Shown here: one piece after another, positions 1-11,469 of the stretch | Layout: every line of letters begins with the position of its first letter | Numbering within the stretch: the first letter of the stretch is position 1 | Assembly (NCBI GenBank): GCA_963837215.1 | Contig: CAWIML010000006.1 | Coordinates: forward strand, 2,271-66,270 | Length of the DNA stretch: 64,000 nt | Direction: 5' to 3' | From: an uncultured Chloroflexia bacterium | GTDB lineage: Bacteria > Chloroflexota > Limnocylindria > Limnocylindrales > CSP1-4 | Position numbers and translations under genes: made by a program | The notes under the pieces: model-generated | Told to the model about the DNA's origin: nothing | What the model saw: only the letters and a program-made list of their open reading frames with translations | Database searches by the model: none

Positions 1-1278
1 TGCCGGCGGTCGTGCCGAGGAACGGGTACTTGCGGATCTCGACGATGTTGACGCCGGCGCTGGCCAGCGGGGAGCACGCCAGGCTCGCGAGCGGGTGAGC
101 TGGCCCGAAGCCTGTAAGGGTCGCCCTGTATGACCCGCCGCGTGCACGTCTCCGCCAGGCCTGCAGGAAGGGCATCGAGGAGGGTCGTCTCCGACGGGTT
201 CGGGAAGACGTCCTCGGTCGCACTCGGGGCCGCATCGGCCGAGGCTGACGATGCTGCGGCGCTCACCGACGGGCTGCCCGTCGGCGACGTCGTCAGCCAT
301 CCGGCGCCGACCGCGACCCAGGCCCCGGCAGCGAAGAGGAGGACGAGGGCGAGGAGACCGACGGCGATGAGCGGCAGGCGCCCGCGCTCGCGAGACCCTG
401 ACGAGACCGTATAGGTCCCCGTCAGCCCGAGCGCTGCGTCGAAGGTCCTCGACGAAGGCCGCGCAGCTCGGGTAGCGATCGGCGGGTGCCTTGGCCATGC
501 CACGGGCGACGACGGCGTCCACGTCGATCGGCAGCTCGGGTCGTCGGAGGTGGAGGGATGGCGGCGCATCGTGGAGATGCGCATTGATGACGGCGACGTC
601 GGCATCGCGACGGAAGGGCGGCGTTCCGGAAAGCGCCGTGACGGCGACACCCGCCAGGGCGTACTGGTCGGCCTGACCGTCGACGGCTCGTCCCTCGATC
701 TGCTCCGGCGCGATGTATTCGAGGGAGCCCAGGAAACCGCCCATCTGGGTCAGGCCGGTCTGCGAGCCTCGCTGCTTCGTCAGCCCGAAGTCGGTCAGAT
801 AGGCGTGGTCCGCGCCATCGGAACCCTGGCCCGCGGCGATGAGCACGTTCGCTGGCTTCACGTCCCGGTGGACAAGCCCTGCGGCGTGGGCGGCATCGAG
901 CGCCGAAGCAAGCTGGGTCAGGATGGCGGATGCGAGGCGCGGTGCCAGGGCTCCCTGGACGAGGCGCTGCTGGAGGTCGGTGCCCTCGACGTAGCGCATG
1001 GCCAGGTAGTACGTGCCCTCGATCTGGCCCGCGTCATAGATCGGGATGATGTTGGGGTGGTCGATGGATGCGGCGAGCTTCGACTCGCGCAGGAAGCGCG
1101 CCCGGAAGGCCTCGTCGTCAGCGTAGTCGGGCGTCAGCAGCTTGAGCGCAACGCGACGGTCCAGACCGGCGTGCGTGGCGAGGTACACGACACCCATGCC
1201 GCCGCGGCCGATGACCGACTCGATGTGATAGGGCCCGAGGTCCGTGCCCACACGAGGGTCGAGGCGCGGTCCCGTCAT
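1..1278 (-). CDS. Membrane Ser/Thr protein kinase, tandem paralog 1 (3' end runs off the window; needs about two frame changes as assembled)
   Basis: The minus-strand reading frame is open to the window edge, so it has no stop here and is absent from the ORF track. Start ATG at 1276-1278: MTGPRLDPRVGTDLGPYHIESVIGRGGMGVVY. Motifs HRDVKPANVL, DFG and APE are present. The TM helix (LPLIAVGLLALVLLF) and the ectodomain (FPNPSETTLLDALPAGLAETC.., ..PLASLACSP..) continue in other frames, with shifts near ~445 and ~100. Confidence 0.8.
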   Translation of the reverse strand, partial: MTGPRLDPRVGTDLGPYHIESVIGRGGMGVVYLATHAGLDRRVALKLLTPDYADDEAFRARFLRESKLAASIDHPNIIPIYDAGQIEGTYYLAMRYVEGTDLQQRLVQGALAPRLASAILTQLASALDAAHAAGLVHRDVKPANVLIAAGQGSDGADHAYLTDFGLTKQRGSQTGLTQMGGFLGSLEYIAPEQIEGRAVDGQADQYALAGVAVTALSGTPPFRRDADVAVINAHLHDAPPSLHLRRPELPIDVDAVVARGMAKAPADRYPSCAAFVEDLRRSARADGDLYGLVRVSRARAPAAHRRRSPRPRPPLRCRGLGRGRRRMADDVADGQPVGERRSIVSLGRCGPECDRGRLPEPVGDDPPRCPSCRPGGDVHAAGHTGRPLQASGQLTRSRAWRAPRWPAPASTSSRSASTRSSARPPA

Positions 1279-2845
1279 GGCGCGATGAACCTGGCGGTCT
1301 GCTCGAACCAGTCGTAGAGCGCCGCCGACTCGCCGCGCTGGTTCGTGGCCTTGACGATGATCGCGTCCGCGTCGTACGTCCACCATAGGATGGCATCGCC
1401 GGTCGACCCCTCCGTGTAGCACAGGATGGCCCCGACATCGGCATCAGCACGCTGCCATCGTCCGTTGGCGCGCTTGCTGATGGCGCAGTCTCCGGGTTGA
1501 ACAGGTGGGCCAGATGCGGAGAACCCTCCACCGCCGACGTATGAGATGACGCCGCCCGGGTAGCCATTCCTGGCCGCATCCGGCCCGAAGCTCCGGATCA
1601 GCGACCGATGAGGCGCCCGCGGTCACACCTGGCGTGCACTCGAGGCTCGCGATCGGGGTGCGAGGGCCGTTGTTGCCCAACAGGGTGTTGTATCTGCCGC
1701 GTTGGCAGCTGACCCTGAGCGTCGTCTGGTAGCTGTTTGAGCAGGGACTTGCTTCGGCCGTATTGGGGAAGATGTCCTCGGTCGGCGAGGCGTCGACCGA
1801 GGACGAAGGCGACGTGGCAGCCAGGCTGCCCGGGGCGCTCGAGCTCGGACCGAGTCCACCGCTCGACGCCATGACGAAGGCGGTCAGTGCGACCAACCCG
1901 AGGATGACGAGCACTCCGACGATCAGGGGCGCGCGCAGGTCTTGACCCGAGGTTCGCTGCGTGGTCGCCCTTGGGAATGTCGCGGTCACGCCCACGGCGT
2001 CGCGGAGCTCATCGACGAAGGCGCGGCAGTCGGGATAGCGATCATCGGGCGCTTTGGCCATGCCCCGGGCGATGACGGCGTCGGCCTCGATCGGCAGGTC
2101 TGGGACGCGCAAGTGCACAGACGGCGGCGCATCGTGGAGGTGGGCGTTGATGATGGCCACGTCCGAGTCGCGCGGAAAGGGCACCTGGCCGGTCAGGCAG
2201 GCGACGGCGATCGCGGCCAGGGCGTACTGGTCGGCCCGCCCGTCGACCACCCGGCCCTCGATCTGCTCCGGCGCGATGTAGTCGAGCGTGCCCAGGAAGC
2301 CGCCCATCTGGGTCAGGTCGGTCTGGGACCGCGCTGCTTGGTCAGCCCGAAGTCGGTCAGGTACGCATGGTCGGCGCGGTCGGCGCCCTGGCCCGAGGCC
2401 ATGAGCACGTTGGCGGGCTTGACGTCGCGATGGACCAGGCCGGCCGCATGGGCGGCGTCGAGGGCGCCGGCGACCTGGGCCAGCGAGCGAGACCGCCGCC
2501 GCGGTGGCGAGCGGACCGGCTCGCAGCGCGTGGCGAGGTCGACGCCCTCCACGTAGCGCATCGCGAGGTAGTAGCGTGCCGTCGAGCGTCACCGGCGTCG
2601 TAGATGGGGACGATGTTCGGCGTGGTCGATGCGCGGCCGCCAGCTTCGACTCGCGCAGGAACCGCGCCCGGAAGCGCCTCGTCGTCGACGTAGTCGGGGC
2701 TGAGCAGCTTCAGCGCGACCTTGCGGTCCAGCCCGGCATGGGTGGCGAGGTAGACGACGCCCATGCCGCCCCGACCGATCACAGACTCGATGTGATAAGG
2801 CCCGAGGTCGGTGCCGACGCGGGGGTCGGGACGCTGCGTCGTCAT
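1275..2845 (-). pseudogene. Ser/Thr protein kinase, tandem paralog 2, heavily frameshifted
   Basis: Start ATG 2843-2845 (MTTQRPDPRVGTDLGPYHIESVIGRGGMGVVY). Stop TGA 1275-1277 (..ALYDWFEQTARFIAP*). Kinase motifs are scattered over track ORFs 2357..2845, 2313..2561 and 1444..2592, and the last ~110 codons lie in an unlisted frame. By eye about ten frame changes are needed, some in compensating pairs. Confidence 0.75.
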
Positions 2846-11200: not shown

Positions 11201-11469
11201 TCGCCGATGAACTTCTCGACCGTGCCCCCGTGGCGCTCCACGATCTCCCGGGCGGCCGCGAAGGTGCGGCCGAGCATCCGGCGCATCGACTCCGGGTCGA
11301 GCCGCTCGCCCATGGCCGTCGAGCCGGTCACGTCGCTGAAGAGGATGGTCACCGTCTTGCGCGTTTCGCGCGTGGTCTGCGGTGCTCCGACGGGCAGCGG
11401 CGAGCCACAGCTGCCGCAGAAGCGGAAGCCGTCCGGGTTCGCCCCACCGCACGAACCGCACGTGGCCAT
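8250..11469 (-). CDS. Zn-ribbon / class III adenylate-guanylate cyclase / STAND (AAA) ATPase / TPR-like multidomain protein (one frame change near ~10845)
   Basis: Track ORF 10711..11469 encodes a CGSCG..FCGSCG zinc ribbon and then the cyclase motifs ILFSDVTGST, KFIGDAVMAVFG, TGINTGEVV and GDAVNVAARLE. Track ORF 8250..10841 encodes Walker A GTAGVGKSRL, Walker B LVVVIDDLHWA and a long Ala/Leu/Arg-rich helical-repeat C-terminus. The two parts are contiguous by homology logic. Confidence 0.85.

Follow-up and report, generated by a model that had tools for sequence, protein, structure and literature searches.

An operon-like cluster conserved in Limnocylindria joins a receptor-kinase gene array with a PP2C phosphatase gene and a cyclase-STAND gene

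The 64,000-nucleotide (nt) stretch of DNA analyzed here (hereafter the window; contig CAWIML010000006.1 of assembly GCA_963837215.1, G+C content ~70%) comes from an uncultured Chloroflexia bacterium of the Limnocylindrales lineage CSP1-4. One end of it carries, on the minus strand, an operon-like cluster that is conserved in the class Limnocylindria and that comprises a gene that encodes a soluble class III nucleotidyl cyclase and a STAND NTPase in one chain (cyclase-STAND), a PP2C phosphatase gene and an array of receptor-kinase genes. The building blocks are all known, namely Hanks-type receptor kinases with a cognate PP2C, class III cyclase-STAND proteins and kinase-cyclase-STAND fusions. 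Undescribed in the libraries and literature that we searched are the ectodomain family of the kinases, the operon that unites a multi-copy kinase array with one PP2C and one cyclase-STAND gene, and the dynamics of this operon. We found no description of the cluster in publications on Limnocylindria kinases, on tandem cyclase, STAND, PP2C and kinase genes, on Hanks-type kinases and Chloroflexi kinomes, or in a bacterial serine/threonine kinase atlas preprint, in keeping with an earlier inspection of the DNA letters and their open reading frames (ORFs; hereafter the sequence-only reading), which could match it to no described system. To our knowledge, signaling is essentially unknown in the Limnocylindria, which are abundant uncultured Chloroflexota of soil and freshwater.

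Results

Organization of the cluster

A Pfam scan of the minus strand from position 1 to 11634 returned a zinc ribbon and cyclase, an AAA_16 domain with weak TPR matches, a PP2C domain and five kinase genes, labeled K5 to K1 (Table 1). These matches bear out the domains that the sequence-only reading had assigned to all seven minus-strand genes. The start/stop overlaps that it had placed at GTGA 8250–8253, ATGA 5946–5949, GTGA 4390–4393, ATGA 2842–2845 and ATGA 1275–1278 are exact, and intact homologues start and stop at these junctions; the gap that it had counted as 25 nt between the PP2C gene and K5 measures 26 nt (7493–7518). Its picture of one overlapping seven-gene block holds for the anatomy and for the 4-nt coupling, in the window as in intact relatives, but the ORFs become continuous only after frame correction, the PP2C gene being the sole gene of the block without a frame interruption.

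The genes share one strand and are joined by 4-nt overlaps or by spacers of at most 26 nt, which are indirect indicators of co-transcription, and we infer a single transcript from this arrangement. The promoter is presumed to lie in the divergent region that separates the cyclase-STAND gene from ilvB, as no other substantial non-coding gap occurs upstream of the block. Scanning for promoters gave one site against 0.9 expected, the consensus being uninformative for a high-GC non-model phylum, and a promoter and terminator consensus scan of positions 1–12200 remained at chance level.

Table 1. Features of the cluster in the window (aa, amino acids; TM, transmembrane)
Feature	Position	Strand	Description
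Divergent intergenic region, cyclase-STAND / ilvB	11470..11865	.	From the ORF layout; presumed promoter region
Cyclase-STAND gene, conceptually ~1072 aa	8250..11469	-	Zn ribbon, class III nucleotidyl cyclase, AAA_16 NTPase and TPR, in that order (Pfam)
PP2C Ser/Thr phosphatase gene, 244 aa	7519..8253	-	Pfam PP2C_2, E = 1.3e-15; also SpoIIE and PP2C matches
PP2C-K5 spacer, 26 nt	7493..7518	-	Contains the Shine-Dalgarno-like motif GGAGGGG; same 26-nt spacing in L002
K5	5946..7492	-	Hanks kinase, TM helix, linker, four-Cys ectodomain (~5949-6461); VALK, HRDVKPAN, DFG and APE present
K4	4390..5949	-	Kinase domain intact, 94.5% identical to L083_k2
K3	2842..4393	-	Ectodomain 2845-3360; GTG start at 4393, then a 1-nt insertion that puts the start out of frame
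K2	1275..2845	-	Four frame segments: ~2845-2590, 2630-2328, 2328-1603 and 1601-1278
K1	1..1278	-	Kinase domain 433-1278 intact; frame changes at least twice after ~433

The gene order recurs in independent Limnocylindria assemblies

The order of a cyclase-AAA_16-TPR gene (1072–1121 aa), a PP2C gene (227–244 aa) and kinase genes is found, with equally tight coupling, in six other Limnocylindria assemblies (relatives' loci are denoted by L numbers and database proteins by P numbers). The loci of the closest relatives belong to 'contig_N' long-read assemblies of the Microflora Danica set of metagenome-assembled genomes (MAGs). L083, L085 (a k141 contig) and L086 (Chloroflexi bacterium CSP1-4) are short-read, Illumina-based contigs; L002 and L088 are one locus, as are L003 and L096 (contig MFD00392.bin.2.404). 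The kinase genes number at least nine in L001 and eight in L002/L088, in both cases intact and joined by 4-nt overlaps. Eight are present in L003/L096, where they are frameshifted, at least five in L085 and three in L086, in the last two again intact and with 4-nt overlaps. L083, where genes and overlaps are likewise intact, has at least three before the contig ends, shares 87–91% nt identity with the window and retains synteny through leuA-ilvC-ilvN-ilvB.

The window itself has at least six kinases, counting one past its edge. Indeed, the array continues beyond position 1, as the sequence-only reading had expected: the database protein P0089 runs from position 175 into a sixth kinase, its first 58 residues being encoded by 175..2 and the complete sixth kinase lying beyond the window edge.

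The cyclase-STAND and PP2C proteins are 77–89% identical among the window, L001 and L002, and ~70% identical in CSP1-4. Because the arrangement recurs in independent assemblies, the array lies far beyond chance, and the same recurrence sets aside the concern, raised in the sequence-only reading, that these genes might co-occur in this genome only.

The cyclase-STAND protein and the phosphatase

The cyclase-STAND gene matches Pfam Guanylate_cyc (E = 2e-24) and AAA_16 (E = 3.6e-22), with weak matches to TPR_12 and TPR_MalT. Read in two frames, its product is 83–89% identical over the full length to the intact 1072-aa orthologues of L001 and L002, and the STAND part retains 88.6% identity to intact relatives across 857 residues. 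The cyclase motifs FSD, EKFIGD and GDAVNVAARL are present and invariant in four orthologues. Both metal-binding Asp residues and the transition-state Asn/Arg of class III cyclases (PF00211) are in place, and FSD, the GD of EKFIGD, and VNVAARLE align with the matching residues of CyaB (3r5g) and Cya2 (2w01).

In cyclases of this class, the canonical specificity pairs are Lys-Asp or Lys-Thr for ATP and Glu-Cys/Gly/Ser for GTP. Here the first position is the Lys of EKFIGD, as in adenylyl cyclases. The second is a non-canonical Phe, invariant in the orthologues, where CyaB has Thr and Cya2 has Gly, and since this position is Phe we assign no product from the sequence.

The STAND module has a Walker A motif (GTAGVGKS) and a Walker B motif (VVVIDD), both invariant in the orthologues, followed by a TPR arm, with the cyclase at the N-terminus. 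By Pfam, neither the 870-aa C-terminal portion nor the orthologues contain a helix-turn-helix (HTH) or other DNA-binding domain; the cyclase is therefore the sole recognizable output.

The PP2C gene starts with a GTG codon that overlaps the cyclase-STAND stop, and this 4-nt overlap is kept in every genome examined. Over its entire length, its product shares 86% identity with the L002 orthologue. The latter scores 252.7 bits against the NCBIfam model NF033484 (Stp1/IreP; cutoff 230) and covers model positions 2–231 of 232, which identifies the protein as a predicted Stp1/PstP-type phosphatase.

The receptor kinases and their four-Cys ectodomain

The kinases are built from an N-terminal kinase domain, one predicted TM helix near residue 300, a Ser/Pro/Gly-rich linker and a C-terminal ectodomain. 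The extracytoplasmic part spans ~190–215 or ~340 residues, the ectodomain being doubled in kinases of ~660–690 aa. Pfam Pkinase (PF00069) matches K1, K3, K4 and K5 with E values from 1e-34 to 1e-42, and K2 in fragments only. All five genes encode the Hanks-type motifs GRGGMGVV, VALK, HRDVKPAN, DFG and APE, and the array kinases are predicted to be catalytically complete at this level. The best-scoring NCBIfam models for the kinase domain are StpK7 and PknB-type. The PASTA kinase model NF033483 gives 268.6 bits against a cutoff of 450, and the match is confined to the kinase domain (residues 16–301).

The ectodomain of ~165 aa has four invariant Cys residues together with conserved GDC and W positions. 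Its alignment contains variable, indel-rich loops at columns ~57–85 and 110–150, and nowhere a conserved stretch of 7–10 columns. Searches against Pfam up to E = 10, PASTA included, and against NCBIfam gave no match, and a profile search of PDB sequences gave chance matches only (butyrophilin, E ~0.4). An AlphaFold2 model was predicted with a mean confidence score (pLDDT) of 91.4; a Foldseek search of the PDB with this model returned nothing at E <= 0.001, the best hit having E = 0.024. Resemblance to the SciW/PsbP/TiME-like alpha/beta fold amounts to template-modeling scores of 0.38–0.43 only, and we rejected this assignment because the PsbP/Mog1-like likeness is too weak. We also rejected a PknH-type sensor domain, which is absent from the matches shown. 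The sequence-only reading had described the ectodomains as the same non-PASTA domain in every kinase. They do form one family without a match to described families, but its members are strongly diversified rather than identical.

A profile of the ectodomain, searched against 1.84 billion representative sequences (E <= 1e-3), retrieved 829 clusters at 50% identity. The 92 best matches with a length of 300 aa or more include 35 that have a class III cyclase domain as partner and 28 that have a kinase domain; SARP-type BTAD/Trans_reg_C, trypsin-like protease, HSP70 and TIR domains are found in single cases. From these partnerships, the four-Cys ectodomain appears to behave as a promiscuous sensor module. 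K3 has thousands of kinase homologues; those that match it over the full length, ectodomain included, come only from Limnocylindria-type Chloroflexota MAGs, CSP1-4 among them.

P0249 (1219 aa) bears six tandem four-Cys ectodomains behind a trypsin-like protease. At L163 (8001–14988), the 715-aa protein P0201 is followed by a 423-aa protein without a Pfam match and by a 1135-aa protein with Guanylate_cyc and AAA_16 domains; judged by its domains, this locus looks like a second, differently built pairing of the four-Cys sensor domain with a cyclase-STAND protein.

The array diversifies between conserved genes

Across the 465 pairs formed by 31 intact kinases, kinase domains are on average 66.6% identical and ectodomains 37.3%, and in 99.4% of the pairs the ectodomain is the less similar part; among kinases of one array, the values are 63–70% and 34–44%, respectively. 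The relationships of the two domains are also discordant. L086_k1 and L085_k2 share 97.8% identity in the kinase domain and 54% in the ectodomain, and their gap-free nt similarity (91.8%) ends shortly past the ectodomain start. K5 and L083_k1 are 77% identical in the kinase domain and 36% in the ectodomain, between flanks of 87–91% nt identity. Copy number changes as well: L085 and L086, with ~90% nt identity in the cyclase/PP2C part, hold five and three kinases, respectively, between the same flanks.

These comparisons indicate that the array evolves by birth and death combined with ectodomain replacement or very fast divergence, next to highly conserved cyclase-STAND and PP2C genes. No reverse transcriptase of the kind found in diversity-generating retroelements was present in the Pfam-scanned ORFs, no template/variable-repeat search having been made.

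Frame disruptions and the integrity of the locus

At least 12 frame disruptions are spread over the cyclase-STAND gene and K5 to K1 within 11.5 kb. We mapped them by tblastn with paralogues and database homologues and by nt alignment against a close relative. The cyclase-STAND gene, as read, falls into two pieces, 10711–11469 (cyclase) and 8250–10862 (AAA_16 and TPR), owing to a 1-nt insertion near 10823. In K5, a 1-nt deletion near 7370 cuts the first 41 codons off from the rest and leaves the Gly-loop in the shifted N-terminal piece. K4, ~95% identical to intact relatives over most of its length, has an in-frame stop at 4504–4506, and its ectodomain-coding region (~4420–4731) is scrambled by ~12 single-nt insertions relative to L083. 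The first in-frame start of K3 is the ATG at 4311, inside the Gly-loop; the database model P0001 starts there and is thus N-terminally truncated. K2 keeps all catalytic motifs across three frames (Gly-loop/VALK, HRD/DFG and APE). The last frame of K1 starts at 175, leaves the window and enters the sixth kinase, so that P0089 (689 aa) is a chimera of the C-terminal half of the K1 ectodomain and the next kinase, the stop/start junction being lost in this assembly. Gene callers consequently give truncated or fused kinase models on this long-read contig, as P0001 and P0089 illustrate.

We interpret the frameshifts as, most likely, consensus errors of long-read metagenome assembly because (i) unrelated genes are split too, (ii) past each shift the frame is open, with catalytic motifs kept and 78–95% identity to intact relatives, and (iii) another long-read MAG is affected alike. 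The plus-strand ilvB gene (acetolactate synthase large subunit) has its TPP_enzyme_N/M domains in 11866–13206 and its TPP_enzyme_C domain in 13073–13798, in different frames, with net +1 indels at ~13094–13112 relative to the intact 611-aa gene of L083. A second thiamine pyrophosphate (TPP)-enzyme gene (32607–34340, plus strand) is fragmented into 32607–33212 and 33618–34340, and a second cyclase/AAA gene (30792–32225, plus strand) into a cyclase piece (30792–31250) and an AAA_16/AAA_22 piece (31413–32225). In L096 (~3700–18500), a long-read MAG of the same project, all eight kinases are truncated or fused by frameshifts, and the cyclase-STAND and PP2C proteins are 96–97% identical to those of L002. 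The array genes are intact in the short-read contigs L083, L085 and L086.

Strain heterogeneity at this variable locus may aggravate the frameshifts. Aligned with L088, L096 opens gaps at a rate of ~10 per kb across the array and ~2 per kb across the cyclase and PP2C genes, an indel pattern that matches the window and may likewise reflect strain heterogeneity at the array.

Alternatively, the array could be decaying in this genome, with the frameshifts and the stop being real and most of the kinases and the cyclase-STAND gene being recent pseudogenes. The sheer number of disruptions within 11.5 kb would fit this explanation, as would inserted bases that lie partly outside homopolymers and a higher density of lesions in the array than across the ilv, cyclase and PP2C segments. 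This last feature weighs against attributing every lesion to assembly: the window opens 16 gaps in 2.36 kb of array against 7 in 4.9 kb of these segments, which therefore leaves room for partial, real pseudogenization. The signs of secondary decay are missing, however, as shown by the open frames, the full catalytic motifs and the high identity to intact relatives, and essential or unrelated genes (ilvB, the second TPP enzyme and the second cyclase/AAA gene) are equally split. Together with the broken array of L096 and the intact short-read arrays, these observations make real decay of the locus rather unlikely.

That mis-assembly expanded one or two kinase genes into the five-fold array, an outcome that the sequence-only reading had named as undoing its finding and that the many indels of this error-prone assembly might suggest, has a negligible probability, since the paralogues are too divergent for repeat collapse or expansion (~63–70% identical in the kinase domain and ~34–44% in the ectodomain) and arrays of three to at least nine kinases occur in independent assemblies, the Illumina contigs L083, L085 and L086 included.

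Do the kinases act on the cyclase-STAND protein?

Our preferred reading is that the array kinases regulate the co-encoded cyclase-STAND protein, the whole forming a sensor-battery circuit; judged from the sequence evidence, we put its chances at even or slightly below. P0201 and P0227 are kinase-cyclase-TM-ectodomain fusions, in which the four-Cys ectodomain is joined to both activities. The curated family TIGR03903 unites kinase, cyclase and STAND modules in one chain, and the array kinases match its positions 4–203 and the cyclase-STAND protein its positions 280–887 (E = 2e-72). These fusions and the invariant 4-nt coupling support, without proving, one kinase-phosphatase-cyclase circuit. 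Domain fusions thereby lend indirect support to the proposal of the sequence-only reading that the receptors feed a cyclic-nucleotide module; that the STAND protein is phosphorylated is something that we infer.

In such a circuit, each ectodomain would bind a distinct extracellular cue, and ligand-driven dimerization would lead to autophosphorylation of the activation loop in the cytoplasmic kinase. The kinases would then converge on shared cytoplasmic substrates, of which the co-encoded cyclase-STAND protein is the most parsimonious candidate, other targets being possible. Phosphorylation could tune STAND oligomerization and the dimerization or activity of the cyclase, yielding a cyclic nucleoside monophosphate (cNMP) output, probably cyclic AMP (cAMP), and the single PP2C would reset both kinases and substrate.

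Several observations speak against this circuit. Actinomycetota, Dormibacterota and other Chloroflexota commonly encode homologues of the cyclase-STAND protein (39–57% identity), and among the best 80 homologue loci whose neighborhoods we inspected in these groups, the PP2C-kinase array accompanies the gene only in L003, the full order being seen in one class only. The flanking ilv/leu genes are equally syntenic, so conservation of the order may partly reflect descent. Loci with two kinases that bear the same ectodomain exist without cyclase or PP2C (L084/L164, 6454–9527, and L089), and the kinases therefore need not act on the cyclase only. Finally, the Phe at the second substrate-specifying position makes the cyclase product uncertain, cAMP being likely but not assured.

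Some of these points favor a different arrangement, in which kinases and phosphatase work as a self-contained module, like PknB/PstP or Stk1/Stp1, on other targets (envelope, metabolism or transcription factors) and the cyclase-STAND protein, whose gene is merely co-located or co-transcribed, receives an input of its own through its TPR arm. By its model score, the PP2C is a genuine Stp1/IreP member, and such phosphatases normally pair with many-substrate kinases; the two-kinase loci sit among housekeeping genes (relA, hisS and mur) without a cyclase; a STAND protein usually detects its ligand with its own TPR arm; and the ilv/leu synteny could mean that the region is simply stable. Against this stand the 4-nt overlap of the cyclase-STAND stop with the PP2C start in every genome examined, the preferential fusion of the ectodomain to class III cyclases, sometimes with kinase and cyclase together, and the existence of kinase-cyclase-STAND fusions as a curated family. 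We consider a self-contained module unlikely, although it deserves serious weight.

A more specific version of the circuit would make the array a population-variable repertoire of surface receptors, maintained by exchange of ectodomain cassettes, for cues from phages, competitors, kin or host polymers. Phosphorylation would converge on one STAND-cyclase alarm hub with the PP2C as off-switch, a bacterial counterpart of the immune batteries of plant receptor kinases. Under this recognition-repertoire reading, the excess of array indels in two long-read MAGs would be real strain-level hypervariability. We regard it as speculative and improbable. Real decay of the array in this genome would agree with either model of function in the intact relatives.

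A dedicated defense or conflict system, in which an Avs-like STAND protein and a Pycsar/CBASS-like cyclase effector are guarded by hypervariable phage or competitor receptors, is very unlikely. The hypervariable ectodomains and variable copy number do recall an arms race, one ectodomain-TIR fusion exists, and PADLOC models match the cyclase (PycC, best E = 6.4e-22) and the kinases (PD-T4-6 and MAD6). The PADLOC matches are generic, however, comparable to those of Pfam Guanylate_cyc and Pkinase; the PycC matches are at the domain level only, and the operon contains no effector gene, there being no adjacent gene for a cNMP-activated effector. A Pycsar system would need such an effector, with a cNMP-binding domain, next to a pyrimidine cyclase. 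The cyclase-STAND and PP2C genes are moreover highly conserved at a fixed core-genome site beside ilvB, not on a mobile island. We rejected membership in PycC, PD-T4-6, MAD6 and PglW alike, judging these matches to be generic and domain-level.

Discussion

Relation to known signaling systems

The circuit that we favor can be set beside several characterized systems. As in the PknB/PstP (Stk1/Stp1) pairs of Actinobacteria and Firmicutes, a Hanks-type TM kinase is encoded beside its cognate PP2C. Unlike in these pairs, the kinases here carry an unclassified four-Cys ectodomain and no PASTA repeats, three to at least nine tandem kinases accompany each PP2C instead of one or two, and the PP2C is translationally coupled to the cyclase-STAND gene and not to FHA, RodA or penicillin-binding protein genes.

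TIGR03903, the kinase/cyclase fusion of thiazole/oxazole-modified microcin (TOMM) systems, and other Pkinase-cyclase-AAA_16-TPR proteins join the same three modules. Membership in this family entails one polypeptide of ~1270–1350 aa, a score above 705.75 bits and a TOMM biosynthesis neighborhood. In the cluster described here, by contrast, the kinase is separate, membrane-anchored and multi-copy, and the score is 244.6 bits against the 705.75 cutoff. No TOMM biosynthesis or cyclodehydratase genes were seen in the neighborhoods, where the neighbors are ilv/leu genes and kinases.

In Mycobacterium tuberculosis, Rv0386, Rv1358 and Rv2488c have the layout cyclase-ATPase-TPR-LuxR, and PknK combines a kinase with AAA_16 and TPR. 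The cyclase-STAND protein resembles these in placing a class III cyclase (in PknK, a kinase) N-terminal to an AAA_16/MalT-like STAND module with a TPR arm. It differs from the Rv0386 type in having no LuxR HTH detectable by Pfam, in its N-terminal zinc ribbon and in its operon with a PP2C gene and a kinase array.

AfsK and AfsR of Streptomyces provide a precedent for control of a STAND NTPase-TPR protein by a Hanks-type kinase: AfsK, a Ser/Thr kinase, phosphorylates the STAND regulator AfsR, whose output is transcription through a SARP domain. The kinase domain of the array gives a weak match to the AfsK model. Unlike at the locus described here, the AfsR output is not a cNMP, the afsK and afsR genes are not arrayed, and the C-terminal domain of AfsK is different.

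Arrays of plant receptor-like kinases (RLKs), such as the cysteine-rich RLKs, consist of tandem single-pass kinases with fast-evolving, Cys-stabilized ectodomains, gain and lose copies by birth and death, and have PP2C phosphatases as antagonists. The comparison is one of analogy only and implies no homology of the ectodomains; the array here is part of a bacterial operon with a cyclase-STAND partner.

The fungal adenylyl cyclases Cyr1 and Cac1 are reported to carry a PP2C domain, so that there too a class III cyclase and a PP2C-type Ser/Thr phosphatase module are physically linked (PMC12710969). The fungal enzymes are single polypeptides with LRR and RA domains, whereas here the genes are separate and a STAND ATPase and a receptor-kinase array take part (PMC12710969).

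Neighboring genes and related loci

The second cyclase/AAA gene of the window lies directly upstream of the second TPP-enzyme gene, an arrangement that echoes the adjacency of cyclase-STAND and ilvB. The region 23750–30461 is rich in genes for nucleotide second messengers, with GGDEF-EAL proteins encoded on the plus strand at 23750–25516 and 28290–30461. In the former, the GGDEF match ends at model position 103 of 161, maybe through another frameshift, and the latter has a weak dCache_1 match.

A branched-chain amino-acid cluster occupies 15176–20503 on the plus strand. It contains LeuA/CimA-type genes at 15176–17071 and 17778–19970, leuB at 16954–18330 and, at 19919–20503, an ORF with a LeuA_dimer domain only, which could be a frameshifted tail or a fragment. 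Farther along, an envelope or exopolysaccharide-type region (37505–49659) encodes an LPG_synthase_TM protein, an 824-aa GSDH-PKD-NPCBM protein, a polysaccharide deacetylase, a family 2 glycosyltransferase and an exosortase EpsH homologue.

Elsewhere among the relatives, one of the two-kinase loci is situated between relA/spoT and hisS and adjoins murein-ligase and FemAB genes; the same genomes carry both types of locus.

Implications

If our interpretation is correct, the cluster defines an extracytoplasmic sensor domain that lies outside Pfam, NCBIfam and the PDB and comprises ~830 clusters at 50% identity. Its partners, which include class III cyclases, Hanks-type kinases, both together, SARP and TIR domains, would show it to be a general input module, much like Cache or CHASE domains. 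The pattern of diversification would mean that bacterial receptor kinases evolve by birth and death and by ectodomain swaps, a mode best known from plant receptor-like kinases. The cluster would also represent a natural many-inputs, one-hub design, in which as many as nine receptor kinases or more share one phosphatase and one STAND-cyclase and on which the wiring between Ser/Thr phosphorylation and cyclic-nucleotide signaling in bacteria could be tested directly.

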